Assembly (NCBI GenBank): GCA_963682135.1
Contig: OY821645.1
Span: 1,888,001-1,952,000, forward strand
Direction of reading: 5' to 3'
DNA: 64,000 nucleotides
DNA from: Methanothrix sp.
Lineage (GTDB): Archaea; Halobacteriota; Methanosarcinia; Methanotrichales; Methanotrichaceae
A program made the translations under genes and the position numbers. The stretch's first letter is position 1. Every line of letters begins with the position of its first letter. Positions 41,548 through 58,816 of the stretch are shown piece after piece. The notes below the pieces were generated by a model. The model made no database searches. It saw only the letters and a list, made by a program, of their open reading frames with translations, and was not told where the DNA came from.

Positions 41548-41862
41548 TGGCGGGCAGTCCGGGTGGTTCGGCGTCACCTGTAACCCGAAATCGTCGATAA
41601 GCGGGGGGCGAAGCTGACGGAAGACTCTGGGCGCTGTGTGCTCAGTCCAGTTGCCGACTATGATTCTCCGTCCTGCAGGGATGGCACCGGTCCATGGGTT
41701 TTCCTGACGGAAGGCCTGTGTACCATAATTGCGGGAACAGGTTCAGGCCCGGAAGGGAGCAGACCCACCGCGGGTAACTATCGCTTACAGGTATATGGGG
41801 AGGAGAAGGCTTCGGGATTAACTGGCATGCAGTCCCGGTGGCAACCGGCGGCGCGCCTGCCA
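41548..41862 (+). ncRNA. ffs: Archaeal signal recognition particle (7S) RNA
   Basis: Terminal helix tggcgggc/gcctgcca; Alu-like 5' domain (ggcgtcacctgtaacccgaaatcg); helix 8 CAGGCCCGGAAGGGAGCAG; about 315 nt. Confidence 0.92.
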
Positions 41863-41868
41863 TTTAAC
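41840..41868 (+). repeat. attL: SRP RNA 3' end, first copy of the 29-bp direct repeat
   Basis: ggcaaccggcggcgcgcctgccatttaac. Confidence 0.8.
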
Positions 41869-41895
41869 ACTAATAAGATCGCTTGTTAACCTTAA

Positions 41896-42206
41896 TGGAC
41901 CTGATAAGGGACAGAGATGAACCTTATCGCTGAGGTGGCCCCATAGAGAAGCTTCTTTTAACGATGGTAGCAGCTTACGTTGAGTTTGAGCGGTCTCTGA
42001 TTACATCCTCCCGCCTTTCCAGTGGAAGCAAGACTAAGGCACGCCATGGAGGTTATGCAGGTTAGCAAGGCACCCATAGGTTACAAGACAGAGAGCCACA
42101 AGGCTCTTACGTTGGATAAAGCGAAAGCAGGCACTGCGGAAGGCAACACCGTAAAGAATGCAAGCAGTTTCACCCTATGCAAGTTAAGAGGATCTTGGAT
42201 AGGTGA
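41896..42206 (+). pseudogene. Serine recombinase relic (resolvase helix E plus recombinase domain pieces)
   Basis: PIEKLLLTMVAAYVEFERSLITSSRLSSGSKTKARHGGYAG, then across frameshifts KAPIGYK and QFHPMQVKRILDR; catalytic N-terminus missing. Confidence 0.75.
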
Positions 42207-42282
42207 ACTGTCTAAAAGCGGCTGCAATTTATACTGTGATCGAAGCTACAGGAAATTACCCGTACATATTATAAGTTAACGA

Positions 42283-43038
42283 CTAAACTGCGCAAGTTTT
42301 AGCGGCAAAACGTGGCTCCATTATATACTGGACAAGAATCCTGACATATTCATTAGTAGCAAACCGAGTTGGGACAAAGTCTCCTGCCACAAGCTCTGAC
42401 GAAGTATCTGGATGCAGAAGCCCCTTACCTTGTAAACTAATACATATTTGTTGAGCATGCGCAAGATCGATATTCAAAGCCCTGGCGATTTCGGATATAT
42501 CTACAAATGGAGGACTATCTAGTGAATACTTGTCATAAACGATTTTAAGCACAGTTATCTCCTCAAGCCTCATAGATGCTATTAAGTCCATTATATATTC
42601 TTCTTCTTCAAGGTTATGGATTGGTCTTATCACACTATTAGTCCAAATATTGCAGAAAATTTCGATTTTCTTTTTCTGAAGTGTTCTCATTGAATGCTCA
42701 AGATACATGAATAATTGTATCTTTATGTATTCCTCAGAACATTGATCCAGAAAACATTTGATCATTGAATTATGGTCTCGTAATACAATTATAATCCTGG
42801 CCAGAGCATCCTCAATATTATCACGTTCACGTCTTGAATTGAAAGCATTTAAGCCAGTTAAAATAGACGCTGATAGGGGTTCTATTAATGATAATATCGG
42901 CAGAAATTCATCGGGTACAATTTGTCCAAGTTTGCAGAGACTATTCTCAATCATAGACCCTGAATTGTTCTCTCTTAATAATTTTTTTATATCATTGATA
43001 TCCTCCGGCGACGCAGTAAATAAGATATCATTACCCAT
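42283..43038 (-). CDS. AT-rich protein resembling Abi-alpha/DUF4393 (helical plus C-terminal winged helix)
   Basis: KKIEIFCNIWTNSV...EEYIMDLIASMRLEEITVL...CISLQGKGLL; family assignment is by pattern only. Confidence 0.55.
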   Translation of the reverse strand: MGNDILFTASPEDINDIKKLLRENNSGSMIENSLCKLGQIVPDEFLPILSLIEPLSASILTGLNAFNSRRERDNIEDALARIIIVLRDHNSMIKCFLDQCSEEYIKIQLFMYLEHSMRTLQKKKIEIFCNIWTNSVIRPIHNLEEEEYIMDLIASMRLEEITVLKIVYDKYSLDSPPFVDISEIARALNIDLAHAQQICISLQGKGLLHPDTSSELVAGDFVPTRFATNEYVRILVQYIMEPRFAAKTCAV

Positions 43039-43084
43039 GAAATGGAAATACTATGCTTAATATAAATAATTTTGCATTCACAGA

Positions 43085-43376
43085 ATGTCTGAAGGAAACA
43101 GGCATGAGAAAAGTGGCTAGGATAGATACCTGACCATCTTTTGAGAAGGGGTTTATAGAGATAGTGGACGGTTTCGCCCAGGAGTTCGGGCTGCAGAGGA
43201 GCGAGCTGCCGGGAAAGGCGGGGCTGGCGAAAGGCTGCTACGAGAAAGCAAAGAGCATCTCGCCTGCGAGGTGCGCTCGCCCAGGCACGCGGATCAGCAG
43301 CTTCAATTCCAAAGGGTGGCTGGAGCCGATACGGGCCATTTGCCGCGTGATGCGAACGAAGTCCCTGCGAGAATGA
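43085..43376 (+). pseudogene. 3' fragment of a DUF1638-like gene
   Basis: GMRKVARIDT...FAQEFGLQRSELPG...IRAICRVMRTKSL parallels the end of ORF 57148-58080. Confidence 0.8.
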
Positions 43377-43421
43377 AGCGAGGCAAGGATTAAATCCTTT
43401 TAAGGATCTATTAAATGCTAC

Positions 43422-43676
43422 ATGTTCTCCGAATACATCCAGGCAGCTTTAATGCAGGCAGAGTACGACACCCTGGAAGATGGTTCCTATGTGGCCACAG
43501 TTCCGGGACTTCAGGGTGTGATTGCCGTGGGAGAGACTCTTGAAGAATGTCGCATGGACCTTATTGAAGTCATTGAGGAATGGATCGTAGCTCGCCTGCA
43601 ATGGGGCTATTCCGTCCCGCCCATTGGTGGCCAAATAATAGCGTCCTCAAAGGAGCCTATTGCCGTTGTCGACTAA
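43422..43676 (+). CDS. hicB: HicB-family antitoxin
   Basis: YDTLEDGSYVATVPGLQGVIAVGETLEEC..L.EVIEEWI. Confidence 0.88.
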   Translation: MFSEYIQAALMQAEYDTLEDGSYVATVPGLQGVIAVGETLEECRMDLIEVIEEWIVARLQWGYSVPPIGGQIIASSKEPIAVVD

Positions 43677-43896
43677 GCTCATACCTATCACTCGGCGCGA
43701 ACTTATCAAGAAATTAACGATATTCGGATTTACAGGGCCGTATCCGGGAACGAAACATCAACATATGGTAAAGGATGGCGTCTTTGTGATGATCCCCAAT
43801 CCTCATCATAGTGAAAAGATTAGCGTTAAGCTGCAATTGATCATTCTGAAAGAAACGGGGATCAGCAGAGAGGAATGGCTTTCCGCTGTCCGATAG
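43660..43896 (+). CDS. hicA: HicA-family mRNA interferase toxin
   Basis: RRELIKKL..FGF.GP..GTKHQHMVK....IPNPH...ILKETGISREEW. Confidence 0.88.
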   Translation: MPLSTKLIPITRRELIKKLTIFGFTGPYPGTKHQHMVKDGVFVMIPNPHHSEKISVKLQLIILKETGISREEWLSAVR

Positions 43897-43993
43897 CCGT
43901 CTTGGTTTCTGTCCAAACACCATCAATATCCTGCACGTGCACGGTCCAGCATCCTTGCGCTACCGCTTTGCTTTGCAGGCTTTCCGATAACAT
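43862..43993 (-). pseudogene. Degenerate inverted HicB-like fragment
   Basis: MLSESLQ...GCWTVHVQDIDGVWTETKT resembles the HicB N-terminus. Confidence 0.4.
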
Positions 43994-44073
43994 TCACCCA
44001 GCGCCGCCACGCGGGCGGACCCACACGACCCTGGCCCGACCGGGTGCTCACGGACGGGCAGGCGCGCCCGTAC

Positions 44074-44335
44074 CGTGACCTGCGGGCGATGCTGAAAGCA
44101 AGCGGCATGAAAAGGGTTTGCCCGAATATACACCGGAGTGTTCTTTGAGCCGGATTTCGAGGGGAAGGTGGCCGACTTCGCCCGAGATTTCGCTCTGCAG
44201 AGGATCGAGCTGCCGGGAAAACAGATCTTGGGAAAAGCAGCTACGAGAGAGCAAAGAGCTGCGTGCTGGCGACAGCCCGGACCGGGAGCGCCCGCCAAGG
44301 GACGCGAATCAGCAGCTTTAAAGCTCGAGGTATCC
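44074..44335 (+). pseudogene. Second 3' fragment of a DUF1638-like gene
   Basis: RDLRAMLKASGMKRV...FEPDFEGKVADFARDFALQRIELPG matches 57765-57990. Confidence 0.8.
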
Positions 44336-44408
44336 GTGGCCTTCCACGCTCCGATGTAATAAGAATAAGGGATAGGCAGCCTTGGGAGACTGCCCGAACC
44401 CCAAGGTT

Positions 44409-47033
44409 TCAGTCGTTAGCGACCGTCATTACTACCTTTTCCAGGTCTCCGTTGTACTTGAACGGACTCTGGTAGTCATCGGTCACAGGTGTCTGTGGAT
44501 CTTTTCCAACCTCCAATCCTTCATCGAAGGAGTAGCGGCCTGGTACGGTGTAGGGCATAACCACGCGCCCTTCCTCTTTGTCGTTGATGAAGAGAGTGCC
44601 TTCACCCTTCCACCTTCCTGTCTTCTTGAAGGCAAAGCCCAATGTGGCCTTTCCTTCAGGAACCTCATCCTTCGAAGTAATGGTGTAATGCTTCAGATCG
44701 AAGAGGTTGTAGTCGAAGATCAGGTGCTTATCCTTGACGTAGAGCGACAACCCTGCGAACCTGCCTCCTATGGAGAAGAGAACGCCTTCGTTACCGTTCT
44801 TGGAGGTGTTCACATATGCGTTCAAGGTGTAGGAGCTGTTGCGCGTGTCTGGGATAGCCGGCTCCATGATCTTTTCCACTCCGGGCAAATAGGTGAAGGT
44901 CGATATTTCTCTCGCCTGGAGAGCTGCGTACCTGGAATAGGCACGGTCATCCAAGGGCAATACGTTGTACTTGCTGGCCTCGGCCCACCAGCGATCTTGC
45001 ATCTCTTTCAACTTGGCAGGATACTGGGCTGCCAGGTTGTGAGCCTCAGAGACATCATTGGTGAGGTTGTAAAGCTCCCATGTGTCGTTTTCGAAGTCTG
45101 GGCCAGAGTCCAGATGGTGGAACGCCACAGCCTTCCAGCCATTGTACCATATGGCGCGGGTCCCCATCATCTCGAAGTACTGGACCTTCTTTTGGGTAGG
45201 TTCTGTGGGATTTGCAAATGTATAGGCCAGGCTGGTTCCTTCGATAGGCTTCTGGGTGACTCCGCTGTAAACCTCAGGAGCATCGAAGTTCAAGACCTCC
45301 AGAACGGTTGGAACTATATCGATAACGTGACAGAACTGCGACCGGATACTGCCTGAGTCCTTTATGCCGTCCGGCCAGTAGATGATCATTGGGTCGTGTG
45401 TTCCGCCTTCATGGCTGGTCCATTTGTAGAGCTTGTTGGGGGTGTTGTCGGCCATAGCCCATCCCAAAGGATATGTGGGGTAGGACATGGGTCCGCCGAT
45501 CTCATCGATCCTGGCGAGCATTGTGCTCATGTTGTTTATAGCTGGAATGGGCAGGAATTTATCCTGGAATCCGGACGAATCCCCGCCTTCGGACACAAAG
45601 TTTGCCCACATGACCATGTTGGTGTAACCATTAGCGTCGCCCTCTGGAGATGCGCCATTATCCGATATCACCACGATCATGGTGTTATTGAGCTGGCCGC
45701 TGTCTTCCAGGTAATCCAGGAACCTTCCAATCTGCTCATCAGTGTAATCGATGTACGCAGCGTGAACCTCTGCAAACCTTGCATAAACCTTCTTCTCGTC
45801 TGCGGTTAGGTTGTCCCACGCTTTTACCCACTGGTCACGTGGCGGCAGATCAGTGTCCTCAGGTACGACTCCCAATTCCTTCTCTTTAGCCAGAGTCTGG
45901 TTCCTCATAGCGTCCCAGCCCATATCGAATTTGCCTTTGTATTTATCGATGTAGGCCTGGGGGACATGGTGGGGCCAATGTCCAGCGCCAAAAGCCAGGT
46001 ACAGGAAGAAGGGCTTATCCGGCTGCAGAGATTTGCCGTCGCTTATGTACTGTATAGACTGGTTCACCAGATCCTTGGATAGGTGGTAACCCTGCTCAGG
46101 AGTGGCTGGCGGGCTTATGCGGGTAGTGCCGGAAACCAGGTCAGGATACCACTGGCTGGTGTGGGACTCCAGGAATCCATAGAACCTCTCGAATCCTCTG
46201 CCCATGGGCCACTGGTCATAAGGCCCAGCAGCGTTGATAGTGCCGGAAGGTGCCAGGTGCCATTTGCCTACACAATAGGTATCGTACCCTTGCTTTACCA
46301 GCATCTCAGGCATGGTGGCTGCCTCTTTAGAGAGGTAAGTCGTATATCCTGGGTAGCCTGATGCGAATTCCATGAGGGAACCGACACCTACAGAATGAAG
46401 GTTCCTGCCAGTGAGCATACAGGCGCGGGTCGGAGAACAGATACCGGTAGTGTGGAAGTTGGTGTACTTAAGTCCTCCTTGAGCCAATCGATCTATATTT
46501 GGAGTACTGACCGGGCCGCCGAAACATTCCAGGCTGCCATATCCAATATCATCGAGCACCAAGAAAACCACGTTGGGCGATCCCTTTGGAGCCACTGCGG
46601 TTTCAAAAGGACATGGAGTTGAGTCTGCATAAGTCAGGCCAATCTGAGGTACGCATTTCTTGGTGGCCTCGGTTCCGCTCTGAGATGATGTAGGAGCGGA
46701 TTCGTTATTTGCAGAATGGATTACCAGAACGGTCTCTTTTTTGGGCGATACTATATCTTCGTTGGCCAGATCTGCCAGAGTCGAACTCTCAGATAAGGCC
46801 TTTCTTCTGTTCGTAACCATTTCCAGGCCAGAATTTTCTATCAATCCGGTGCCGGAACTGCCCTTGGCATCGGCGGCCAATGTCTGGCTGACTTGTTGGC
46901 TGTCTGAAGTCGCAAGAGCATCTGATGCTTTCGCAGAATTACTGTTCTCTGCGGAAAAGCTATCAGAGGCTATTATCGAAAATAAAAAAATCAGAGAAGC
47001 CATTATTATAGTGGCTTGTTTTAAAATTTGCAT
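44409..47033 (-). CDS. Secreted arylsulfatase (Cys-type formylglycine enzyme)
   Basis: Signal peptide; PNVVFLVLDD.GY, CSPTRACMLTGR (CxPxR), GKWHL, HWPH, SDNG, WELYNL..D.SE; AGGAGG RBS. Confidence 0.92.
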   Translation of the reverse strand: MQILKQATIIMASLIFLFSIIASDSFSAENSNSAKASDALATSDSQQVSQTLAADAKGSSGTGLIENSGLEMVTNRRKALSESSTLADLANEDIVSPKKETVLVIHSANNESAPTSSQSGTEATKKCVPQIGLTYADSTPCPFETAVAPKGSPNVVFLVLDDIGYGSLECFGGPVSTPNIDRLAQGGLKYTNFHTTGICSPTRACMLTGRNLHSVGVGSLMEFASGYPGYTTYLSKEAATMPEMLVKQGYDTYCVGKWHLAPSGTINAAGPYDQWPMGRGFERFYGFLESHTSQWYPDLVSGTTRISPPATPEQGYHLSKDLVNQSIQYISDGKSLQPDKPFFLYLAFGAGHWPHHVPQAYIDKYKGKFDMGWDAMRNQTLAKEKELGVVPEDTDLPPRDQWVKAWDNLTADEKKVYARFAEVHAAYIDYTDEQIGRFLDYLEDSGQLNNTMIVVISDNGASPEGDANGYTNMVMWANFVSEGGDSSGFQDKFLPIPAINNMSTMLARIDEIGGPMSYPTYPLGWAMADNTPNKLYKWTSHEGGTHDPMIIYWPDGIKDSGSIRSQFCHVIDIVPTVLEVLNFDAPEVYSGVTQKPIEGTSLAYTFANPTEPTQKKVQYFEMMGTRAIWYNGWKAVAFHHLDSGPDFENDTWELYNLTNDVSEAHNLAAQYPAKLKEMQDRWWAEASKYNVLPLDDRAYSRYAALQAREISTFTYLPGVEKIMEPAIPDTRNSSYTLNAYVNTSKNGNEGVLFSIGGRFAGLSLYVKDKHLIFDYNLFDLKHYTITSKDEVPEGKATLGFAFKKTGRWKGEGTLFINDKEEGRVVMPYTVPGRYSFDEGLEVGKDPQTPVTDDYQSPFKYNGDLEKVVMTVAND

Positions 47034-47262
47034 CCCTCCTTTTATAGTACATATCAAATATCATATATCAATTTAATCTACATTCCAAGCTTTATCTTGC
47101 AGCTTGGGCTTGAAAAAAGCTCTATTCTCGGAAACTAAAAAATAATAGAATCTCGAACGATTGTGAAAGGTGTATGGAAAGGCTGGCTTTGATCAATTGC
47201 TATATTCTGATCGCGCGAAGGCATGATGACCCGAAGGCTTTTGATCGAATAAACCAACAACA

Positions 47263-48195
47263 TTGGATATGAAGAATTGGGATATGCTATTGGCTGCAAT
47301 TTTGCTGTTGAGTGCAATTGTTTTCGGCACTCAATCGGTTTTGGCAGAAGAATCCGGTATGGCAAGTGCATCAATAAGTGACTCACTTAACGAGACAGAA
47401 CTCGTCTCCTTTGTCGAGTCCGCTGTGGGCTATGCGCATGGACATAGCAAAGACATGGCACTAAAGGAATTTAGCAATAAGACTGGCTCGTTTATCAATG
47501 GTGAGCTTTACATATTTGCATACGATTTCAATGGAACTTGCATTGAACATCCTTTTAAGACCGATTGGATAGGCGAGAACAAGCTGAACGAATCGGACTC
47601 CAACGGCGTTTTGTACGTAAGGGAGGGGATCAATGCCGCAAAAGAAGGAACTGGATTTCACTACCTGATCTTCCCCAATCCTGCTCACGATAATCGGAGT
47701 GAACTTAAAATCGCTTATGTGATGAAAGTAGATGATAGCTGGTTCTTAGGCTCCGGGATATACCTCTCCAACATATCTGCTTCTTTCGATAATGAGGCGA
47801 GAGATGAGCTTGTAGCCTATGTGAATGAAGCATTGCAGTTTGCGAAAAAGAATAGCAAGGAAAAGTCTCTGTCGGTTTTCAACGATTTAAACGGGACTTT
47901 TACAATAGATGGACGTTATATATTTGCCCGTGACCATAATGGACGGAGTTTAGCCCTTCCTTACCAGCCTGAGATTGTCGGTACAATCGGAATCGATAAT
48001 CAAGATCCAAATGGAGTCTATTTAATCCGCCGGCTCATCGATGTTGCCAAAAGAGGGAATGGTTTCACATATTACATCTATCCCGATCCAACCAGAAACA
48101 TGAATGAGACGCTAAAACTTAGTTATGTGGTGGACGTAGAAGGCACCTGGTTCCTGGGTTCTGGGATCTACGCTAATGATGAGCAAGCAAGCTGA
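47263..48195 (+). CDS. Secreted protein made of two Cache domains only
   Basis: Signal peptide; duplicated YIFAYD.NG...HP...D.NGV...K.SYV..VD..WFLGSGIY. Confidence 0.85.
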   Translation: MDMKNWDMLLAAILLLSAIVFGTQSVLAEESGMASASISDSLNETELVSFVESAVGYAHGHSKDMALKEFSNKTGSFINGELYIFAYDFNGTCIEHPFKTDWIGENKLNESDSNGVLYVREGINAAKEGTGFHYLIFPNPAHDNRSELKIAYVMKVDDSWFLGSGIYLSNISASFDNEARDELVAYVNEALQFAKKNSKEKSLSVFNDLNGTFTIDGRYIFARDHNGRSLALPYQPEIVGTIGIDNQDPNGVYLIRRLIDVAKRGNGFTYYIYPDPTRNMNETLKLSYVVDVEGTWFLGSGIYANDEQAS

Positions 48196-48532
48196 TTGAG
48201 TTTGGGGTGAATATTAGGATTATTCCGGCAAGTATGGAGTGATGATCCATGAATACTGAGAAAAATCCTGTAAATGTGGTATTCAGCATTGCGTCGGCTG
48301 CGGTGATTGCAGCAATTCTATTTCTCTGCTCAATTCCTGCTTTCGGCCAGGCGGTACCTAATGGCAGTCAGTCTGCTGCACAATCCGGGGCAGATATGCT
48401 CTTTAAGCTACTCCGGTTTCAGTCTGATGTGCAGGGTAACCTGAATAATCTGGATTTGGATGTATCAAATGCATCTCAAAACTCTTATGTTTAGCAAACA
48501 GTTGGACTGCACCCCTGATAGTAGACAGTTAG

Positions 48533-49408
48533 TTAAGCAACAGTATTTAAAGCAAACTCCATTTCGAACCGTTCTGGAGATTTATAGTTCAAAGCTGAAT
48601 GAAGCCTCTTTTGGTTGTACACCTTCTCAATAAAACGCCATATGTTTTTGTAGGCATCTCCAAATGTCTCGTATTCGTTTAGGTATACCTCCTCGACCTT
48701 TAGGGTTTTGATAAAGCTCTCAGCAAACGCATTGTCGTATGGATTTCCTTTTCTGGACATGCTAATCAGGATTTTGTGCTCTTTGAGACAATCTACATAA
48801 TCATGGGATGCGTACTGAACTCCCTGATCCGAATGATGAACAAGTCCTTGAGTATACTCCGACCAGCGATTTTTTATTGCCTTGTCCTGAGCATTCATGG
48901 CCAGTTTGCTGTCTATGTTTCTGCTCAACTCCCAGCCAATGCACTTCCTGCTGTAGAGATCCAAGACCACCGCGAGATAGATGTTCTCATGCAGCAACTG
49001 AATGTATGTGATATCTGAAGCCCAAACCTGATTCAGTCCAGTTATCTTGATGCTCTTCAAAAGATTTGGATATACAGGCAGTCCATGACTGGAATCGGTT
49101 GTCATCGGCTTGAATTTCTTCTTCAGGCATAGAAGGTTGTCCTGTCGCATCAGTCTCAACACGCGTTTATGGTTAACTGCATAACCACGATTCTGGAGTT
49201 CAGCCGTAATCCTCCTATAACCATAGCTCGGAAATTCCAGGGCAATTTCCTGAAACTGGTTCTTCAAATCCATATCCTCAGAGTCGGCTGCGGCTATTTC
49301 CGGCTGAGTCCGCCATTTGTAGTAACCACTGCGACTTACTTCTAGTGCCTGGCAGGATTGAGATATTGATAACAAAAAGCCGTCTGAGCGGTTTTCCTGG
49401 ATGGTCAT
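48533..49408 (-). CDS. IS3 OrfB (rve/DDE integrase domain)
   Basis: YGYRRI, VWASDITYI, HHSDQGVQY, GNPYDNAFAESF..LK.E. Confidence 0.93.
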   Translation of the reverse strand: MTIQENRSDGFLLSISQSCQALEVSRSGYYKWRTQPEIAAADSEDMDLKNQFQEIALEFPSYGYRRITAELQNRGYAVNHKRVLRLMRQDNLLCLKKKFKPMTTDSSHGLPVYPNLLKSIKITGLNQVWASDITYIQLLHENIYLAVVLDLYSRKCIGWELSRNIDSKLAMNAQDKAIKNRWSEYTQGLVHHSDQGVQYASHDYVDCLKEHKILISMSRKGNPYDNAFAESFIKTLKVEEVYLNEYETFGDAYKNIWRFIEKVYNQKRLHSALNYKSPERFEMEFALNTVA

Positions 49409-49734
49409 AAATCGTCCCTCCGCGTCGGTTTTATTCTTTCTTCCCGGACCTTTTTTTGAGTCATGGCGAAGGCTTTTTTTAAAAGATCGATTTCGGCATG
49501 GGCTTGGCCGAGCAGTCTCTCCAGTTCCGCGATCCTCGCCTCGTCTTTGTACCTATTTCCATTCCCGTTGAACGCTTTTTCAGGGTTCTCGGCCAGCTCA
49601 TCTCTCCACCTGGTGGGTAGGGCCGGATGAATGCTATACTCGCGGGCGATCTGTGCCAGAGGTTTACCGCCCTCAAGTTCGGCTACTACTGATATCTTGA
49701 ATTCTCGGTCGTAGCGCCGCCTCGTCTTTTTCAT
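49405..49734 (-). CDS. IS3 OrfA (HTH); -1 frameshift signal A7G at 49450-49457
   Basis: RRYDREFK...AQIAREY; slipping at AAAAAAAG gives a stop-free read into OrfB. Confidence 0.9.
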   Translation of the reverse strand: MKKTRRRYDREFKISVVAELEGGKPLAQIAREYSIHPALPTRWRDELAENPEKAFNGNGNRYKDEARIAELERLLGQAHAEIDLLKKAFAMTQKKVREERIKPTRRDDL

Positions 49735-50228
49735 GTGCTTCCCTCCATGAGTTGATGTTGCTTAACTCATTGTCTACTCTGAGGGGTTCACTCCAAGTTC
49801 CTACTGGTCCAAGGATCTTGATGGACTACTTCTCTATGGCGAGGATGAAAGCCAGATAGTAAAGGACCTATTCGAAGATCCTCTATACAAGCCGTTCACT
49901 GACCTTCAAAAACCGGTGGAGCACAGTATTGTGTCCAAGAGGTCTGGGCATGGGAATTATAGCTATTTCGAGGTCATAGGGGCAATAAAACAGTAGTGAC
50001 CAAGGAATGCTACTGGACAACGACAGGGCTTCATGGTAAGGAATGGAGGCTTGTTATCATCAAGGTGGTGCAATAAGCTCTTCTATTGATTTTTTATATT
50101 TCATGAGATGAGATTAGGGGAGCAACTGTTTATAAAAAGGGTGCTAACGCGGCGAGGATTTGGTGTTCTACTAAGAAAGATTTATACCTAAATAGCCATT
50201 ACTAACTTAAAAAATTGGAGAAATGCAA

Positions 50229-50381
50229 ATGAAAAGCTCCCCAATAGTAGGAATAATAATGGTTTTGGCGATATTATTGCCGTTTTCTTTAGACATCGTT
50301 CACGGAGGGAACGCGAGGAGCGTATTGCCAAATGCAGTTATGCAAGAGTCGAGTTCCGGTGCGTTTTTTGTTTTTGCCTAG
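50229..50381 (+). pseudogene. Truncated secreted-protein start (signal peptide only)
   Basis: GGAGA RBS; MKSSPIVGIIMVLAILLPFSLDIVHG; ends at the GC-rich repeat motif. Confidence 0.4.
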
Positions 50382-50587
50382 CAGGCTCGGGGAAACCAGC
50401 GGCGCTCACGGACGGGCAAGCGCGCCCGCGCAGGGGACGTTTACATGGGCCATCGTCTGAGAAAGCCGCCTCTGCAAAAAGCACCAATTATCCACAGGGC
50501 GACTGCCCCTTCTGAATGCCTTCCTGCCGGCCCGGGAACCAATTGCGTTGAGGAAAAGAGAGATATATTGAAGAAGCTTAATTGTAA

Positions 50588-51427
50588 TTGATGTCAAGAT
50601 TGACTGCCTTCATTTCGGGTATGGTCCAGAAGACCGGCTACAGAGCACGGGTGGTAATCCTGGCCAATGCCTTCGGACTGCAGGGATATGTGCAGAACCT
50701 TCCCGGCGGCAAAGTCAAGGTAGTCGCAGAAGGAGAGAAAACCGATCTGGAGCGTTTTCTCAATTGCTTAACCATAAAAGATGCACTAATCGATGTGCAG
50801 AGCATCGAGAATGAATTCACCGCGGCCTCAGGTGAGTTCATTGGATTCGAAAAGATGGTGTCGAGCGGCGAGACCGACCAGCGCCTGGACAAAGCGGCAG
50901 ATCTGCTCAAAGATCTCATTGTGGTCACCAAAGAGGTCGTAGTGGAACTGAGAGCCACCCACGAAGAGATCAAAGGTGTCAGGGACGAGGTAAAGGGTGC
51001 ACGAGAGGACATCAAAGGTGTCAGGGACGAGGTTAAAGGGGCACGAGAGGACATCAAAGGTGTCAGGGACGAGGTAAGAGGGGCACGAGAGGACATCAAA
51101 GGTGTCAGGGACGAGGTTAAAGGGGCACGAGAGGACATCAAAGGTGTCAGGGACGAGGTAAGAGGGGCACGAGAGGACATCAAAGGTGTCAGGGACGAGG
51201 TAAGAGGGGCACGAGAGGACATCAAAGGCGTGCATGAAGCTGTCCAAAATGTCTGCCAGGCAGTTAATAATATTGGTAATATTCTGTCTGAGAAGATAGA
51301 TGATGCAAGAGATGAAGTCATAGGTGAAGTCAAAGAGCTTCGCTCCGATTTGAGAGATGATCTCAAAGAGAGACTAATCCGGATGGACGCAGATATCTCA
51401 CAAATAAAGGCCAAGTGTGGTCTCTAA
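50588..51427 (+). CDS. Acylphosphatase-like domain fused to a repeat-built coiled coil
   Basis: ISGMVQKTGYRA...GLQGYVQNL.GGKVKVVAEGE; 14-aa repeats KGVRDEV[KR]GAREDI. Confidence 0.85.
   Translation: MMSRLTAFISGMVQKTGYRARVVILANAFGLQGYVQNLPGGKVKVVAEGEKTDLERFLNCLTIKDALIDVQSIENEFTAASGEFIGFEKMVSSGETDQRLDKAADLLKDLIVVTKEVVVELRATHEEIKGVRDEVKGAREDIKGVRDEVKGAREDIKGVRDEVRGAREDIKGVRDEVKGAREDIKGVRDEVRGAREDIKGVRDEVRGAREDIKGVHEAVQNVCQAVNNIGNILSEKIDDARDEVIGEVKELRSDLRDDLKERLIRMDADISQIKAKCGL
50969..51235 (+). repeat. 42-bp coding tandem repeat, about 6 copies
   Basis: atcaaaggtgtcagggacgagg...gcacgagaggac, period 42. Confidence 0.95.
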
Positions 51428-51473
51428 ACACTTTTTTTATCTTCAAGACGATCCGGACCCATAGATCTGTCCG

Positions 51474-51536
51474 GATTGCATATCTTGATATCCCCATACC
51501 CATAAACCAGGATTCATCATGCCTGTACTGTCCATA
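51474..51536 (+). pseudogene. Upstream region and first codons (MPVLSI) of a DUF1638-like gene
   Basis: gattgcatatcttgatatcccc...atcatgcctgtactgtccata matches 57104-57165. Confidence 0.7.
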
Positions 51537-51643
51537 AGAAGGTGGGCATGGAGACGCTTGAGGAGCTTTGAATAGGGGGCGAATGCAAAAAGAGATGTTA
51601 GGAGAAGCTTGAGAGCTATTTTTAGCTTCTCCGCACACCACAT

Positions 51644-53569
51644 TCATATGGGGTATATTTCACATTCGGGACTACATTTTACATCCTTATAACCACAGGG
51701 ATAATAGACATTGCCGATGAGTTGCCCCTTGCAGGTAAAATCGAAGTTAAGAGACACGCCCACACCAACTGGGTCGGGCATTGTTCCTTCCAGCTCCTTT
51801 GCCAGGGTCTTAACCTTGGTCTTAACCTTGAATTTCGAACCTGCCGGAACATCCTTGAATTCATACATTCCGCTCTCGTCGGTTATTTCTCGAATGGTTT
51901 CAGGTGTATCCTCAGAATAAGCGGGCGGTATATATGTAAAGGTCAATTCTACCGGAGTATCGGCCAGGCCTTTTGAACAATCACCGGTAAGCATACTGAT
52001 AGGATCATTGCTGCAATCCCTATCTATTTCCACATATCCTCTCACGCTGCCTTTGGTTTCAGATTGGATTGGCTTTTCCAGATCAGAAGAGCCCTTCGCG
52101 GGATATCCGTCTATCTTGCTAAATCCGCAGCCATTTGATTCTGAGTTCATAGACCAGGTCTCCGGTTCAGAATCGATGATGGTATAGGTTCCTGCGGGCA
52201 TTACCTCGTCTGGATGACAGATCCACCATACATTAGCTACACCTGATCCTGATTCAGCCTTCACTGTCCAGGGTCCGAATATTTGGCCGTCATCTCTTTT
52301 GAGACTGATGGTTCCGGCTGCCGATGTACCCTGTCCGAAGTTCCAGTGGTAGGTATCGATATAGCTGATATAATAGGGCTGGTTTATCTCAAAGCTGGGA
52401 TTACATGTGGGAGAATTCTCAACGATTCCTTTGTTCCAATTGTTGAAGATCTCAATGCTATCGGTTTTTGTTCCTGACAAATCAGACGAAGCTTCAGTTT
52501 CTCCCTTCTCAGGGATGACATTCTCTTGTTCTGAGGCTTCAATCTCAGACAAGCTTCCTGATCCTACCCGACTTAGGTCAGAGCCCAGCCATAAGAGGCT
52601 CTTGCCATCGTCACAGACGATTAGAAGGTCGCCATTCACAGGATTAAACTGCATATCTCCTGGCTTAATTAGGCCAGTTACTACCGGTGTAGTGGTACCG
52701 TCATTCTCCACTTTTAGCAGCTTCCCGCCTGCAGCATCACTCACGTATAGAGCGTGACCAAACAGGCCGCCGAAGCTCAGGCACATTCCACCATTCATAG
52801 TAGATGTCTCGTTCACCTTGGCAAAGAGAATGGCTTCTCCGTCGTTTGTAATCTTGTAGACGCCAAATACTCCGCCAAAAGGCCAACCTCCTGCCCAATT
52901 CATTGCATAAAGAGTGCCATCCAAATTATCATACGCCAGATTAGCCAGGCCGGGCGGCACATCTCCCTTGACAATCAGGGGCGTCTCTGCCACATCCTCT
53001 CCGGAGAGATGCCATATATTATCCGACTCAAAGTCCGGAAAATACCATCCACCGTCCGGGGCAGTGATGACACGGCCCATGCCGGGATAGGTAGCTGTAA
53101 GATTCCACTTTCTATAGCTACCATCAGGTTTGAGTTCAAACAGCCCTGCAAATGGACTTCCTCCATCTGGCCAGTAATCCACCGAAGTCAGGACATTTTC
53201 TCCCAACATAACTCCTGTCTTCAGGCTTAAGCCCGATAACAATTCGGATTCTGCGTAAATATGGGTTGAACCAATGCTGTCGATTGCCAGGAGCTTTTGC
53301 GTGCCTCTCTCGCTAGAGAAAACGTAGGCTGTGCCATCGGGTCCGAAGAAGAGGGCTCCAATAGCAATTGAAGAATTGAAGAGCTTTGCCTCTATGCCGG
53401 GCGGAAGAGTAATTCCTGCTGGCAGGGATACCTGCTGAATTAAGTTTGGTTCAGTGTAACCAGAATCGATTAATTCGCCATCGGCTGCAATTCCTCCCCA
53501 GCTAAGAAGAACGAAGATCGCAACGATTAGGCTAAATCTTGCTGAAAGATGCATTTTATCAAGCAACAT
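51644..53569 (-). CDS. Secreted multidomain protein (beta-propeller-like N-terminus plus beta-sandwich domains)
   Basis: Signal peptide; FGPDGTAYV, LYVSD, KPGDMQF propeller-like blades; YHWNFGQG...PAGTYTIIDS domain. Confidence 0.7.
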   Translation of the reverse strand: MLLDKMHLSARFSLIVAIFVLLSWGGIAADGELIDSGYTEPNLIQQVSLPAGITLPPGIEAKLFNSSIAIGALFFGPDGTAYVFSSERGTQKLLAIDSIGSTHIYAESELLSGLSLKTGVMLGENVLTSVDYWPDGGSPFAGLFELKPDGSYRKWNLTATYPGMGRVITAPDGGWYFPDFESDNIWHLSGEDVAETPLIVKGDVPPGLANLAYDNLDGTLYAMNWAGGWPFGGVFGVYKITNDGEAILFAKVNETSTMNGGMCLSFGGLFGHALYVSDAAGGKLLKVENDGTTTPVVTGLIKPGDMQFNPVNGDLLIVCDDGKSLLWLGSDLSRVGSGSLSEIEASEQENVIPEKGETEASSDLSGTKTDSIEIFNNWNKGIVENSPTCNPSFEINQPYYISYIDTYHWNFGQGTSAAGTISLKRDDGQIFGPWTVKAESGSGVANVWWICHPDEVMPAGTYTIIDSEPETWSMNSESNGCGFSKIDGYPAKGSSDLEKPIQSETKGSVRGYVEIDRDCSNDPISMLTGDCSKGLADTPVELTFTYIPPAYSEDTPETIREITDESGMYEFKDVPAGSKFKVKTKVKTLAKELEGTMPDPVGVGVSLNFDFTCKGQLIGNVYYPCGYKDVKCSPECEIYPI

Positions 53570-53808
53570 ATTTTCCCCGCCTACTTTTAAGGTCCCTGAA
53601 GCATTCCCTCGATACGTAAGATATTGTTCCCTTTGAGATCCCGAAATCGAGTGCTACGTTGTCCCTCAATATTAATTATGTGCATTGAGTTATAGCTTCC
53701 GGTATGTCTTGAGAGCATGCGGAGATATAATGGGCAAGGTCGCCATTGTGTTCGCACCTCCCCGGATGCCGGAGAGGAATTAACTGTAATGGAACTAACT
53801 GTAATGAC

Positions 53809-53837
53809 GGCAACCGGCGGCGAGCTTGCCATTTAAC
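53809..53837 (+). repeat. attR: duplicated SRP RNA 3' end
   Basis: ggcaaccggcggcgagcttgccatttaac, 27/29 identical to 41840-41868. Confidence 0.8.
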
Positions 53838-53841
53838 TTTA

Positions 53842-54300
53842 TCATACCGCCTTTCCCATTTCATATGCCTGAACCATTGTTCGGCTTCCCTTGATCTCCC
53901 CCATATTCCAGGCACCAGTTCCATAGATAATGCCCTTTTCTTCGGCTCCGTTCAGGCAGGAGGTAAATCCTCTGAATCCTTCCAGGGTTCTTTAGGTTCG
54001 GTCAATCGGTGTTTTCATCTGGGCGCTCATTGTGTAAAAATAAACCGGTGTGGCCATCACGATCACATCTGCGGCAATCATTTTTTCCAGAACTTCTGCC
54101 ATGTCATCCATCTGAACGCACTTATGGCTGGTGTAGCATGACCCGCATCCAGTGCAGTAGCCAATCTTTTTGTCTCTCAAAAAAATCTCTTCCGCCTGAT
54201 TGCCGGCTTCTTTTGCTCCAAGCATAAATTGATCGCACAACATGTCTGAATTTCCGCCTTTCCTCGGGCTAGAGGACAGAACCAACACTTTTTTGCTCAC
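53842..54300 (-). pseudogene. Iron-sulfur flavoprotein/flavodoxin pseudogene
   Basis: SSSPRKGGNS, CTGCGSC...CVQMDDM, ATPVYFY; premature stop after IDRT, then TLEGFRGFTSCL...GTGAW...AYEMGKAV in shifted frames. Confidence 0.8.
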
Positions 54301-54301
54301 G

Positions 54302-55825
54302 TTAAGAACTCTCAATATCCAGTTCTAATCGTTTGAGATTTACTGAAGGCAGATTTATAGCTTTATTAGCCTCCATGGTGAACGATCCCTTGAACGGATT
54401 ATATCCTTCTTTCTCGGCTGTGAAGCTATATGAAACGCCTCCGGATCTACCTGCATATCCTGAAAAGCGGAACATCCCCTGTTCATTGGTAGTCTTTCCC
54501 GCGGCAGTAATCTTTCTATCCATATTGAAGTATATCTTGATTTTAGCTCCTTGTAGCGGCCGCGAAGTTTCATCATCAATCACTTGACAATTAATTTCAC
54601 CGAGCTGAGGATAATATTTGCTGTAAAAAATATCAGAAAGCCCAATTTTCTGGCTTCTCTCTTCTGAGATATAGTTCTTAACCAGCCAATATCCTGAAAA
54701 TAAAAGTATTCCGGATGATAAACCTTTTTCATAAAGCTGTATGCCCTTATCTATCAAATAGGATATGGATTGATTGGACATATCTCCATAATCGCCATTA
54801 TGGATATACACGCCTGTGATCAGTTCTTTATTTGGATAATGGGCCTCTAGAGCACTTAAATATATGTCGAATTTATTATAGGAATCCTCCTGGTTATAAA
54901 GCCAGAAGTTAACACCATCGATCATATTTATTATATCTTTATCCGGGGAAATCCTCAACTCACCTCCATATGTGACAATGAACAATTGCAAATCAGGAGT
55001 AGTTGGGCTTGAGTCAAGATCCACAGAACCATCAGATTTCATTTTTTTTCCTGATAGAGCACCTTTTATATTTTTCATATCTTCCAGAGTAATGGCATTT
55101 CCGTAATAGTTAGCCCAGAAATCATCGATTATCACTCCTCTTATTTGGGGTAAAATTGAAGATAGCTTGGAGAACCTCGCCGCTGCTTGGATCATCCCTG
55201 GTGATGAATCTGGATCCCATAGCTTAGTATCATTGGGATTATTGACGACCCCCCTTTCGGAAGGTGGTCGAATTATTCCATAAACCAGGTTAGTATCAAA
55301 TTCATGACAATGCTTTTCGATATTTTCTCTAAAATCGTACGCACCATAACTCGGATCATTTATTATGCCGTTCACACCAAAATGATAAGCTTGATAAAGA
55401 TCTTCATCCTCAGATATGCCTGTTCCTGCATAAACTTTGCCTTTAAAAGGATGATATACTCCTATAAAACCCTGCTTTATTGTGGTCAATACCACTGGTT
55501 GGTTATTGGAATTTACTAGTGGAGGAGCTGAAGATTTATACGGATTTTCAGGCAAACCAACATCTATCCAACTCGACTCAATTTGCAGTGTCTTGGATGA
55601 TCCTCCTTCAAATTTCTTATCCAATTCAAGATATTTATTCATATACTTATACTCATTATTTTCGTCATAGTATTTTTCTATGATTATCTCTGTGGGATTA
55701 GCTTCCTTTGATCCGGATTTTTCTTGTTGTGCCATGGATGCAAATACGATAGGAGACAAAAGTGCTGATATAAGGGCCAGAAAAATTATCCCTGAACTTA
55801 CTTGAGATATTATCCTCATTATCAT
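54302..55825 (-). CDS. AT-rich secreted protein, possible glycoside-hydrolase-like barrel plus carboxypeptidase-regulatory domain
   Basis: Signal peptide; GVIIDDF, DGVNFW; C-terminal VIDDETSRPLQGAKI...TNEQGMFRF...KEGY. Confidence 0.6.
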   Translation of the reverse strand: MIMRIISQVSSGIIFLALISALLSPIVFASMAQQEKSGSKEANPTEIIIEKYYDENNEYKYMNKYLELDKKFEGGSSKTLQIESSWIDVGLPENPYKSSAPPLVNSNNQPVVLTTIKQGFIGVYHPFKGKVYAGTGISEDEDLYQAYHFGVNGIINDPSYGAYDFRENIEKHCHEFDTNLVYGIIRPPSERGVVNNPNDTKLWDPDSSPGMIQAAARFSKLSSILPQIRGVIIDDFWANYYGNAITLEDMKNIKGALSGKKMKSDGSVDLDSSPTTPDLQLFIVTYGGELRISPDKDIINMIDGVNFWLYNQEDSYNKFDIYLSALEAHYPNKELITGVYIHNGDYGDMSNQSISYLIDKGIQLYEKGLSSGILLFSGYWLVKNYISEERSQKIGLSDIFYSKYYPQLGEINCQVIDDETSRPLQGAKIKIYFNMDRKITAAGKTTNEQGMFRFSGYAGRSGGVSYSFTAEKEGYNPFKGSFTMEANKAINLPSVNLKRLELDIESS

Positions 55826-55962
55826 ATACTATATCTCTCCATTCCGAACAAACTGCATCTTCTTTCCTAGATTTAAGATCATCCCTAAATCCGGAATCTA
55901 ATTGAGGAATTACTAACTAAAATCCTTATCTCGTCCAATGCTTAAGAGAATGGCCGCGGATA

Positions 55963-56718
55963 TCAGTTAGTATAGGCGGTCTCGAAATTTTTCAATTTAT
56001 TCTCAAAAACGTCATTTTTAGTAATATCATTAACGCCTGCATCCATCAAAAATACTCCTCGTGAGTTATTATTTATAATGTTATATTTTACTAAATTTAA
56101 TTCCGAAGAACCTGTAATAAAAATACCTGCACCATTGTTGTTATTTATATAATTGTTTGTTATCTTATTACTCTGTGAATCTGACACTAATATGCCTTCA
56201 AAATTACTATCAACACTATTATTGGTAATGGAGTTGTTATGTCCTCCCAGGACTTTGATTCCACTGCGATAGTTATTTTCTAATATATTTCCTTTAATCG
56301 TATTGTTGTTTGACCTTACAAATACTCCCGCCCCGGATAGCGGATCTCCTGCGGTATTTGTGGAATTCCTAATTGTAAACCCTTCCATCATTACCCCATC
56401 TGCGAGAATAGTCACTCCTGGACCTTTGAAATAATCGCCCCCTGCATCAATAACCGGGTTTTTCAACCCAATAATATTTAAGCGCCTATCTACAACGATA
56501 TTTTCGTAGTATGTTCCGGGATAAACCAATATTTCATCCCCTATGCTAGCCGAATCTATCGCTTCTTGAATGCTTTCGTAATTCTTGGGGCTATTTCCTA
56601 CAATTAAAGTAGCCCCATATGCACATACGATGGAACTAATTAGCATTATTGAAATAATTAGAAACATTTTTTTTATAGGAGGTATGAACTCCACTTCTGA
56701 GTATCCTCCACTTCGCAT
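55963..56718 (-). CDS. NosD/CASH-type parallel beta-helix secreted protein
   Basis: YESIQEAID...PGTYYENIVV...GFTIRNS; repeated NN.I.NN...GI. Confidence 0.85.
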   Translation of the reverse strand: MRSGGYSEVEFIPPIKKMFLIISIMLISSIVCAYGATLIVGNSPKNYESIQEAIDSASIGDEILVYPGTYYENIVVDRRLNIIGLKNPVIDAGGDYFKGPGVTILADGVMMEGFTIRNSTNTAGDPLSGAGVFVRSNNNTIKGNILENNYRSGIKVLGGHNNSITNNSVDSNFEGILVSDSQSNKITNNYINNNNGAGIFITGSSELNLVKYNIINNNSRGVFLMDAGVNDITKNDVFENKLKNFETAYTN

Positions 56719-56821
56719 GCATAATGTTTCATCTATTAAGTATAAATACTTGCTGAAGCGGTTTCCTCTTCACTTGTATTGACGAGCAATTTTGGAAGAA
56801 TTGTGCATTCATTTTGAATTT

Positions 56822-56970
56822 CATCTCTTGAGTGTGCAAAGCTGATATACGTTAAGAGCAAACGCAGTAACTATCATTTTGACGCGAACCTCTTAACTGT
56901 AGTAACCAATACCCTTTCCAGCTCTAAAAACTCGCTTTATTACCGCTTGAGATCTCTCGCCAGGGGGCCA
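56822..56970 (-). pseudogene. IS5-family transposase C-terminal relic
   Basis: PGERSQAVIKRVFRAGK / VLVTTVKR / VKMIVTAFALNVYQLCTL across frameshifts. Confidence 0.6.
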
Positions 56971-57147
56971 TGGCCAAACATCCTGGATAATATTCTGAAT
57001 TATCAACTTCTTCTTTCATCCAATTAAGCTGTCGAGCAAGCCTTTTGAATCACAGCCAATTATTTTTATCACAGGGCCAGCCCATATCCATAAACCAGCC
57101 CGCGATTGCATATCTTGATATCCCCTTAGCCCCAAACCCTGATAATC

Positions 57148-58080
57148 ATGCCCATACTGTCCATAGTCGCCTGCCGGATGCTGGAGGATGAGCTAGTTCA
57201 CCTGCTCTCAGCCGATGGAGAGGTCCGGGAGCTTCTCATCGTGGACAGAATGCAGGCCCTTAGCCTCTCCGCAAAGCTGAAGGGGCAAAACCGTCCCCAC
57301 CTCCTCCTGAGCCCGGACAGAATTGCCCCGCACCTCCAGGAGCGGCAAAACAGGAGACGCGGCATCTTTTTTCGCTGCAGAGCAAGCCGCAAAGCAGAGG
57401 GGACTGTAATTGTGATTAGCCCGCTTCCTCTCGGGCTGCACTCCGACCTGGAGCAGCTGCGGGCCGCGGTATATGATAATATTCGCAGTCTATCCTCATT
57501 CTCGGATGGGATACTGATCTTCTACGGCAAATGCGGAGGCTTTCTGGCCAATCTGGAGGACGACCTACCCGATCTGCCCTGCCCAATCTACTTCCTGACT
57601 GATGAGAGTGGAGAGAGAATTGAGGACTGCATAGCTCTTGCTCTGGGCGGAAACGAAAACTATGATCATATCCTGGCCGAGCACCAGGACGCGGCGCTCT
57701 TCATGACCCCCATGTGGGCTTCCAACTGGAGCGCGATGGGCGATGAGGCCGCCTCTGGCAAGCGTCGGGACCTGCGGACAATGATCAAATCAAGCGGCAT
57801 GAAAAAAGTGGCTCAAATTAACACCGGCCTTTGCGTTGAGCCGGGTTTCACGGAATTGGTGGCTGACTTTGCCCGAGAGTTTGGGCTTCAAAGAATCGAG
57901 CTGCCGGGAGGGACGGCGGTGGCGAAATACGGCTACGAGAGAGCAAGGAGCTGCTTGGCGGCTGCCCGGCCCAGGAGCGCCCATCCTGGGGCAGAGATCA
58001 GCGGCAGCTTCAATTCCAGGCTTGCGGAAACGATAAGGGTCATTTGCCGCATGACACGAAAGAAATCCCTGGAAGAATGA
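57148..58080 (+). CDS. DUF1638-like protein (intact copy)
   Basis: IVACRMLEDEL, LGLHSD, DGILIFYGKCG, DCIALALGG, FMTPMW. Confidence 0.8.
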   Translation: MPILSIVACRMLEDELVHLLSADGEVRELLIVDRMQALSLSAKLKGQNRPHLLLSPDRIAPHLQERQNRRRGIFFRCRASRKAEGTVIVISPLPLGLHSDLEQLRAAVYDNIRSLSSFSDGILIFYGKCGGFLANLEDDLPDLPCPIYFLTDESGERIEDCIALALGGNENYDHILAEHQDAALFMTPMWASNWSAMGDEAASGKRRDLRTMIKSSGMKKVAQINTGLCVEPGFTELVADFAREFGLQRIELPGGTAVAKYGYERARSCLAAARPRSAHPGAEISGSFNSRLAETIRVICRMTRKKSLEE

Positions 58081-58234
58081 AGCTATTCTGTTCAATCACG
58101 TCAGGAAATGTACATCAAAGCCTTCATATGAGATACTCAAAGACCTCATATGATGTTTACCTTCATATATCTCTGATATTGTAACTACAGATATCAAGTT
58201 ATATGACAGATGGTAGGAGAAAGGGTGATAAGAA

Positions 58235-58816
58235 ATGACAGTTAATGCGATATCGGGATTTCTATCCGCCAGGATTTGCATTTCGGTCTTACTCATTGCG
58301 CTCTTGCTTGGCACGGGGGCCGGGCAGAGTTTCGATAGCCTTTATAAAAGCAGTGCTCCTCAAAGCGCGCGGGAGCGAGCAGAACTGTTCAATGCGATGC
58401 AAAATATGGATGATACGAGCAATCATCAAGCTGCCTTGGACGGGAGCGATCTATATAAAGCGCTTCAGAATCCCTATATATTCAATGATCCTCAAGCGGC
58501 GTTGGAGAATGCAAATACATACAAACAACTTCAAAAGTACAATGCCATTTACTCCAGCTCTCGTATTGATGATAACTGGCACTATTGGACCAACATGTGG
58601 CTGAACGGGCCTCAAGGTTCCAGTGCTGCTCAGGATGATGCAAATATCTATACAACATTATCTAATCCTTACGCGTTCAATGATCCTCAAGGGGCACTGG
58701 AGCAGGCCAACACATATAAGGCACTTCAAAAGTACAATGGCATTTACTCCAGCTCTCGTATTGATGATAACTGGGATTATTGGACCAACATGTGGCTGAA
58801 CGGGCCTTCAACCTGA
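58235..58816 (+). CDS. Secreted protein with two 65-aa internal repeats
   Basis: Signal peptide; NPY.FNDPQ.ALE.ANTYK.LQKYN.IYSSSRIDDNW.YWTNMWLNGP twice (195-bp period). Confidence 0.8.
   Translation: MTVNAISGFLSARICISVLLIALLLGTGAGQSFDSLYKSSAPQSARERAELFNAMQNMDDTSNHQAALDGSDLYKALQNPYIFNDPQAALENANTYKQLQKYNAIYSSSRIDDNWHYWTNMWLNGPQGSSAAQDDANIYTTLSNPYAFNDPQGALEQANTYKALQKYNGIYSSSRIDDNWDYWTNMWLNGPST

Follow-up and report, generated by a model that had tools for sequence, protein, structure and literature searches.

We analysed a 64-kb window (64,000 nt in all) of a Methanothrix genome, in which the gene for the signal recognition particle (SRP, or 7S) RNA is followed by a strain-variable island. We conclude that the 3' end of this single-copy gene very probably serves as the attachment site (attB) on the chromosome for tyrosine integrases of the classical, non-split type that form a dedicated clade in Methanothrix and its family, and that the window holds an old, decayed product of their activity. 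Repeated SRP 3' ends, the linkage of integrase genes to the SRP gene, the single origin of the integrase clade, a site whose occupancy varies and relatives with complete elements were all observed directly. The mechanism would be a classical one; the target appears to be unreported in Archaea.

The window contains the only Archaea_SRP RNA gene of the genome and no tRNA gene. A previous reading of this stretch, made from the sequence only, had noted that the 29 nt at the 3' end of the SRP gene (41840-41868) reappear in the same orientation at 53809-53837, with 27 of 29 positions identical. Shuffles and a whole-genome search bore this out. At up to three mismatches the 29-mer had no match in 100 dinucleotide shuffles, and the 3,043,341-bp genome holds the two same-strand copies, which differ by 2 mismatches, and no others; the 29-mer is therefore not a dispersed repeat. 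Homology ends sharply at 41868 and 53837, with no rightward extension of the repeat, and extension to the left was not significant (134 of 500 shuffles equalled or exceeded the local alignment score of 17 obtained upstream). Directly 3' of the SRP gene the GC content drops from ~55% to 39-41%, and it is 35-46% at 53.8-57 kb. The window has the arrangement of an island, with an intact target gene at one end and a displaced 3' fragment in the same orientation at the other; in relatives such fragments measure 32-133 nt. SRP genes beside insertions are still full length. Swapping displaced 3' ends into chimeric SRP RNAs changed the energy only slightly and in either direction (-3.2 to +7.9 kcal/mol), and energies therefore do not identify the native copy.

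Displaced SRP 3' ends recur across the genus. We used the 3' 129 nt of the window's SRP gene, and each genome's own SRP 3' end, as BLAST queries against 59 Methanothrix and Methanosaeta genomes, and extra partial copies were present in at least 13. Nine genomes carry them on the SRP contig (G000, G012 with two, G014, G017 with three, G041, G045, G058, G059 and G068), and four more have partial copies embedded in non-SRP sequence (G052, G053, G060 and G062); six contig-end or ambiguous cases (G002, G032, G048, G051, G057 and G066) were left out of the count. All extra copies lie in the orientation of the SRP gene, and all end at CCATTTAA, corresponding to query position 126-129. The attL-side copy in the window has this same right edge. 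Left edges recur near query positions 32, 49 and 74. In length the copies group at about 97, 80, 55 and 29-39 nt; two measure 133-134 nt, and some copies are arranged in arrays of two to four.

The candidate enzyme is a tyrosine integrase encoded directly downstream of the SRP gene in relatives. A 293-aa protein with a PF00589 match of 90.6 bits is encoded in G014, starting 143 nt 3' of the SRP gene on the same strand. G031 and G011 have intact homologues, with 83% and 61% identity respectively, ~70-160 nt 3' of their SRP genes. These three SRP-adjacent integrases are 289-294 aa long and share the strand of the SRP gene; no other homologue in the genus exceeds 42% identity, and all of these are located elsewhere. 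In G357, which belongs to another genus of the same family, a full SRP RNA gene likewise precedes the integrase gene, at a distance of ~140 nt. Because the integrase gene (int) is intact and free of stops in the integrated state in all four genomes, the SRP integrases are of the classical type and not of the 'suicidal' type known from SSV. Integrase relics, comprising the N-terminal or middle part of the protein, occur right after the SRP gene or within arrays in G017, G042, G044, G058, G060, G063, G064 and G065.

A class-wide profile search of 392 genomes returned matches in 40 of 104 other genomes of the window's family and in none of 287 genomes from seven other families. The four top matches, at 553 bits or more, were the SRP-adjacent integrases of G014, G031, G011 and G357, and the next matches reached at most 326 bits. 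We inspected eight of these lower-scoring loci; no SRP gene was present at any of them, and at five a same-strand tRNA gene precedes the integrase by 90-270 nt. In a small sample of 12 genomes from eight other genera of the class, no tyrosine recombinase was found within 1.5 kb on either side of the SRP gene; as a positive control, the same search was run on four loci of the genus, and both intact integrases present there were recovered. A scan of IMG/VR with the integrase alignment yielded no relatives, and a scan of GTDB species yielded four loci, all from Methanothrix or Methanosaeta.

Metagenomes extended the linkage. Of 49 integrase loci in the scan, 23 were informative, meaning that the integrase was at least 55% identical and retained its N-terminus, and that the contig reached at least 150 nt further upstream. 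SRP 3' sequence was directly upstream of the integrase in all 23: 18 have it in the same orientation, separated from int by 48-141 nt, 2 have it inverted, and 3 were settled with closer SRP queries. Where the integrase was less than 50% identical, 12 of 13 loci had no upstream SRP sequence. Rfam gave no matches on loci with partial SRP copies, because partial 3' strands do not score. Many metagenome contigs start inside the SRP gene, as is expected if repeats break assemblies.

In a maximum-likelihood tree of 37 integrases, rooted at the midpoint only, all 25 SRP-adjacent sequences (22 on the same strand, 3 inverted) fell on one side of a branch with 100/100 support and a length of 0.7; the other 12 include five that are tRNA-adjacent. 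The SRP-adjacent integrases are monophyletic and of single origin, and their nearest relatives lie beside tRNA genes. Two arrangements within this set deserve mention. At L108, L109 and L110, which form a subgroup of the SRP clade with 63-68% identity, the SRP 3'-end copy upstream of int is inverted, so that int would sit at the attR end. On the metagenome contig L116, tandem integrase genes follow the SRP 3' end, one of the SRP clade (201-1097) and one of the tRNA-type clade (1282-2139), which is sister to the L128 integrase.

Complete elements were found in relatives. The element in G014 comprises the SRP gene, int, cargo and a 96-nt repeat (89 of 96 positions identical) in 3.8 kb, and that at L122 spans 6.4 kb, with int and 5.4 kb of cargo between the SRP gene and a repeat that is perfect over 95/95 positions. 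Cargo between copies varies by genome; Pfam matches include GmrSD, SIR2_2, DUF4145, SocA/Panacea, DUF3800, REase_MTES_1575, PIN, SatD/DUF3307 and several transposases. The cargo of the complete elements, like the 251-aa and 641-aa open reading frames (ORFs) of the window, had no informative matches in PHROGs, PADLOC or Pfam. The sequence-only reading had postulated a family of methanogen elements that targets the SRP RNA gene and restores its terminal helix on integration. The relatives' arrays, the integrase clade, these complete elements and the near-empty or differently filled sites support its central point, namely that such elements have the SRP RNA 3' end as attB and keep the SRP gene full length.

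Some units between attachment-site (att) copies lack an integrase altogether. A DUF3800 mini-element of ~1 kb, with the SRP gene on one side and an att copy of 80 nt on the other, is present in two species, G012 (L034, 17440-19672) and G059 (L049, 18596-19664); the two units are 96% identical and their flanks 84-89%. The unit in G012 is interrupted by an ISAzo13-family transposase gene. Such integrase-less units could be relics or could be moved in trans. At another locus, L070 (contig C28 of G067, 429-1736), a DUF3800 gene stands beside a small serine recombinase split in two ORFs, and this pairing of families is also present in SRP islands.

Comparison with relatives defined the borders of the window's island. 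A DUF1638 gene follows the last att copy in G041, G012, G059 and G045, whereas G006 has a near-empty site, with only ~200 nt separating its SRP and DUF1638 genes. The spacing between the two genes is 1.1-7 kb in other relatives versus 15.2 kb in the window. A 1707-nt contig from a landfill metagenome links 41868 to 57092 via 1421 unrelated letters. From the relatives' conserved flank and this contig, we place the strain-variable region at 41869-57091 (15.2 kb); the copy at 53809 is therefore internal to it. The search for empty sites that had been suggested found near-empty or differently filled ones in related genomes. By contrast, the proposal that 41840-53837 constitutes one element has to be given up, since the variable region extends to 57091 and chromosomal-flank genes lie inside the interval.

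Those flank genes complicate the history of the window. Homologues of its hicBA pair and of its acylphosphatase gene lie beyond the DUF1638 gene, outside the arrays, in G012, G045, G052 and G061. The interval between the att copies is not a simple element, because these flank-type genes are inside it. Two DUF1638 3' fragments of the island have no more than 70-75% identity with the complete DUF1638 gene (57148-58080); together with the flank-type genes, these diverged fragments argue that SRP-flank DNA was duplicated, translocated or imported in the window.

Several observations weigh against the proposed role of the SRP gene, or against the window as an example of it. The displaced copy in the window is short, at 29 nt with 2 mismatches, and the 12 kb between the copies holds hicBA and an acylphosphatase gene, which are chromosomal flank in relatives; the 29-mer could owe its present place to rearrangement. 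An alignment with six relatives revealed no att copy at the true right border near 57091 (~57040). No tyrosine integrase or relic was detected in the island, either by a PF00589 profile search or by tblastn with the SRP-linked integrase; the window's genome has five PF00589 matches, all elsewhere. With both kinds of match absent from 41869-57091, the window locus is a relic and not a functional island member. Contigs of two isolate runs were identical to the window and contained no excision joint, although contigs cannot show rare forms; neither a circular attP form nor recombination activity was observed. Among the relatives, G031, G011 and G357 have the integrase and no detectable far-end repeat in the available sequence.

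The arrangement of repeats and genes suggests the following course of integration, in which we infer catalysis by the integrase, the position of crossover and the order of events in the window. The attP of the element would be a copy of the SRP 3' end, 29 to ~130 nt long (mostly ~95-97 nt) and reaching to CCATTTAA, 5-6 nt past the end of the RNA. Recombination within this block of identity would place the element right after a regenerated full-length SRP gene, with int oriented away from it, and would displace the native 3' end to the far side, where it would be kept as a direct repeat. All copies have the final ~23 nt of the gene and its tail in common, so crossover presumably takes place in this stretch of ~29 nt. 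Repeated integration would build tandem arrays, whose cargo would be mainly defence-like genes, toxin-antitoxin genes and insertion sequences. In the window, attL at 41840-41868 and one copy at 53809-53837 would have survived while the integrase was lost. Later events would include arrival of the IS3 and of a 6.3-kb block with 28-nt repeats, and a rearrangement or duplication that brought a DUF1638 fragment, hicBA and the acylphosphatase gene between the att copies.

We also considered whether the second 29-mer marks something other than the far end of an element. It may instead be the left end of an older insertion at 53838-57091, the intervening DNA having come by segmental duplication, translocation or recombination, possibly from another strain. 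This account is a minority one that we nonetheless take seriously. It would explain why flank-type genes (hicBA, the acylphosphatase gene and the 3' fragments of DUF1638) are found between the att copies, the divergence of the DUF1638 fragments, which suggests old or foreign paralogues, and a variable region that ends at 57091 and not at 53837. In G061 and G015, the two of the closest relatives by SRP sequence whose downstream DNA was compared, a truncated DUF1638 gene, hicB and an acylphosphatase gene come directly after the SRP gene. However, no junction or mechanism of rearrangement was identified, and the 29-mer has sharp borders on either side, the right one matching the att edge of the whole genus. 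From these edges we conclude that the 29-mer copy itself arose by site-specific recombination. An older insertion would alter the history of the window and not the nature of the hotspot. That the repeat is a chance match or a dispersed repeat can be regarded as already refuted by the shuffles, by the presence of only two copies in the genome and by the recurrence of such copies at the same locus in many genomes.

The identity of the enzyme was open to a different challenge, namely that integration at the SRP gene is the work of a serine recombinase of the kind left as a relic at 41947-42203. The relic is 78 nt from attL, homologous fragments also occur in the SRP islands of G017 and G059 (so that, counting the window, three of the seven genomes with a match have one there), and serine recombinases build arrays with 20-bp repeats at a stable-RNA gene in the Dehalococcoides ssrA islands (PMC3146451). 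Yet the intact homologues (contigs C75 and C23 of G056, C101 of G066) and the split copy on contig C28 of G067 have no SRP-like sequence in the 9-20 kb around them. The protein is a small recombinase of ~250 aa and not a large serine integrase, and the relic lacks its N-terminal half, the start of which would have overlapped the SRP gene. With the tyrosine-integrase clade fully linked to the SRP gene, a serine enzyme in this role is highly improbable. The relic is most simply a passenger, since fragments occur in three SRP islands and intact copies are unlinked to SRP sequence. The tyrosine integrase remains our preferred candidate.

Beyond this, we put forward a wider proposal tentatively, with somewhat less than even confidence in it as a whole. 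The SRP-specific clade may have arisen once in Methanotrichaceae by a switch from tRNA genes, and may represent the first use of a stable-RNA gene other than a tRNA as attB in Archaea. Its att arrays might then act as a platform for cassettes, with integrase-less mini-elements such as the ~1-kb DUF3800 cassette moved in trans by the SRP integrase.

Features of the SRP locus, the island (41869-57091) and its right flank in the window.
Feature	Position	Strand	Basis or remarks
SRP (7S) RNA gene, full length; probable integration target (attB/attL side)	41548-41862	+	Rfam RF01857, 193.5 bits, model 1-317
attL-side 29-nt repeat: last 23 nt of SRP RNA plus 6-nt tail TTTAAC	41840-41868	+	
Displaced 29-nt copy of SRP 3' end; putative internal att remnant	53809-53837	+	27/29 identical
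Small serine recombinase relic, ~last 100 codons of a ~250-aa protein; N-terminal catalytic part gone, stops and frameshift	41947-42203 (about)	+	
251-aa ORF in low-GC block (39-41% GC)	42283-43038	-	No match in Pfam, PADLOC, PHROGs
3' fragment of DUF1638-gene paralogue	43084-43379	+	70% identical to 57796-58083
hicB	43422-43676	+	Pfam UPF0150/HicB, 90.9 bits
hicA	43660-43896	+	HicA_toxin, 21.5 bits, weak
6.3-kb secondary insertion between 28-nt direct repeats	44043-50428		Repeats 44043-44070 and 50401-50428
Second DUF1638 3' fragment, inside 6.3-kb insertion	44074-44293		
Sulfatase gene, inside 6.3-kb insertion	44409-47057	-	
Cache-domain protein gene, inside 6.3-kb insertion	47263-48195	+	
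IS3, inside 6.3-kb insertion	48533-49734	-	Terminal inverted repeats 48502-48542 and 49756-49796
Acylphosphatase and coiled-coil gene	50588-51427	+	Pfam; flank gene in relatives
641-aa ORF	51644-53569	-	No match in Pfam, PADLOC, PHROGs
Further strain-specific low-GC block (35-46% GC)	53838-57091		Relatives and GC profile
Truncated FMN-reductase gene	53992-54315	-	
507-aa CarboxypepD_reg-like protein gene	54302-55825	-	
251-aa beta-helix protein gene	55963-56718	-	
DUF1638 gene, conserved chromosomal flank	57148-58080	+	Pfam, synteny

The remaining contents of the island are mixed. The recombinase relic seen in the sequence-only reading is indeed present; it proved to be a truncated small serine recombinase, and the tyrosine integrase that we link to the SRP gene is the enzyme absent from the window. 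The relic shows DNA homology to intact 251-255-aa genes of other Methanothrix genomes, whose product has a Resolvase and a partial Recombinase domain; no significant match to PF00239 or a resolvase domain was found anywhere in the window's genome. HicBA and the IS3 had also been recognised correctly, the former confirmed by Pfam. The label 'Abi-like' for the 251-aa ORF at 42283-43038 found no support in any of the three databases.

The direct repeats that bound the 6.3-kb insertion are identical at 26 of 28 positions, and the segments on both sides are contiguous in relatives; the block may be a second, unrelated site-specific insertion. An 86%-identical copy of the window's IS3 (48498-49796) occurs in G044 (L057, 583-1875), ~170 nt beyond the SRP gene and ahead of an integrase relic; insertion sequences seem to pile up at the SRP hotspot. 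Besides the two 3' fragments, the island has a 5'-like DUF1638 fragment at 51459-51536, and the three scattered pieces are 70-81% identical to 57088-58083. Two other repeats are local: tandem 84-nt units, 92-96% identical, at 50963-51231 within the acylphosphatase and coiled-coil gene, and a 132-nt direct repeat, 89% identical, at 58481-58612 and 58676-58807 in the ORF at 58235-58816 just 3' of the DUF1638 gene.

Methanothrix is a globally important acetoclastic methanogen for which few genetic tools are known. The integrase together with a ~95-nt att sequence is a candidate tool for site-specific integration in this genus. The SRP locus would also be a place in Methanothrix genomes where cargo that varies between strains, such as insertion sequences and defence-like or toxin-antitoxin genes, can be predicted to gather, and its repeats offer an explanation for assembly breaks there. 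For the evolution of integrases, the clade would provide a clean natural case of a switch in target, from tRNA genes to a quite different RNA gene. The window itself is a decayed example only.

Integration into tRNA and transfer-messenger RNA (tmRNA) genes is textbook knowledge, and the archaeal 7S SRP RNA gene would join a short list of stable-RNA attachment sites. The sequence-only reading knew of no description of such a site in archaea, and our search of full-text literature likewise found no archaeal SRP RNA attachment site; supplements, TIGER/Islander and ProBord, which lay outside that search, may list such targets. A 2021 review of archaeal tyrosine recombinases (PMC8371274) contains neither 'SRP' nor 'signal recognition' in its text, and its section on non-tRNA targets names intergenic sites and protein genes only.

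The elements described here resemble Islander-type tRNA and tmRNA islands and, in Archaea, the classical, non-suicidal integrases of the pNOB8/SNJ2 type (PMC8371274) in having a PF00589 integrase beside the regenerated RNA gene and an element-borne copy of the gene's 3' end. They further share with these systems the direct repeat that the displaced 3' fragment forms at the distal border, the tandem arrays and, in the kin of the integrase, a place beside tRNA genes. Unlike in those systems, their target is the SRP (7S) RNA gene, and the blocks of identity are long, typically ~95 and up to ~130 nt. The window locus also departs from Islander-type members in lacking a PF00589 integrase, which is present at the SRP site in G014, G031, G011, G357 and the 23 metagenome loci. 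In SSV-type archaeal integrases attP lies inside int, which is split by integration, whereas int is unsplit here.

Bacterial precedents exist for the target. The Enterococcus phage phiEf11 integrates in ffs, the gene for bacterial 4.5S SRP RNA, with a 27-nt core (PMC12540744), and Vibrio cholerae defence islands occupy ffs as a hotspot (bioRxiv 10.1101/2024.07.25.605194). Both are like the archaeal elements in that an SRP RNA gene is attB. They differ in that the archaeal 7S RNA is ~315 nt long as against the bacterial 4.5S RNA, and the hosts are unrelated; the likeness is one of target. The integrase clade described here is confined to Methanotrichaceae within the genomes searched.

A further parallel in architecture is with Dehalococcoides ssrA islands, which carry CcrB-like large serine recombinases and a 20-bp repeat (PMC3146451). 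In the SCC/ssrA type a large serine recombinase is linked to the target, whereas the serine recombinase of the window is a relic of a ~250-aa protein whose intact copies lie away from SRP-like sequence. A tyrosine integrase is linked to the SRP gene instead, and the repeats are 29-133 nt long. The two systems agree in having tandem islands 3' of a single-copy, essential stable-RNA gene, short direct repeats of its 3' end, an integration module by attL, and strain-level diversity driven by the islands.

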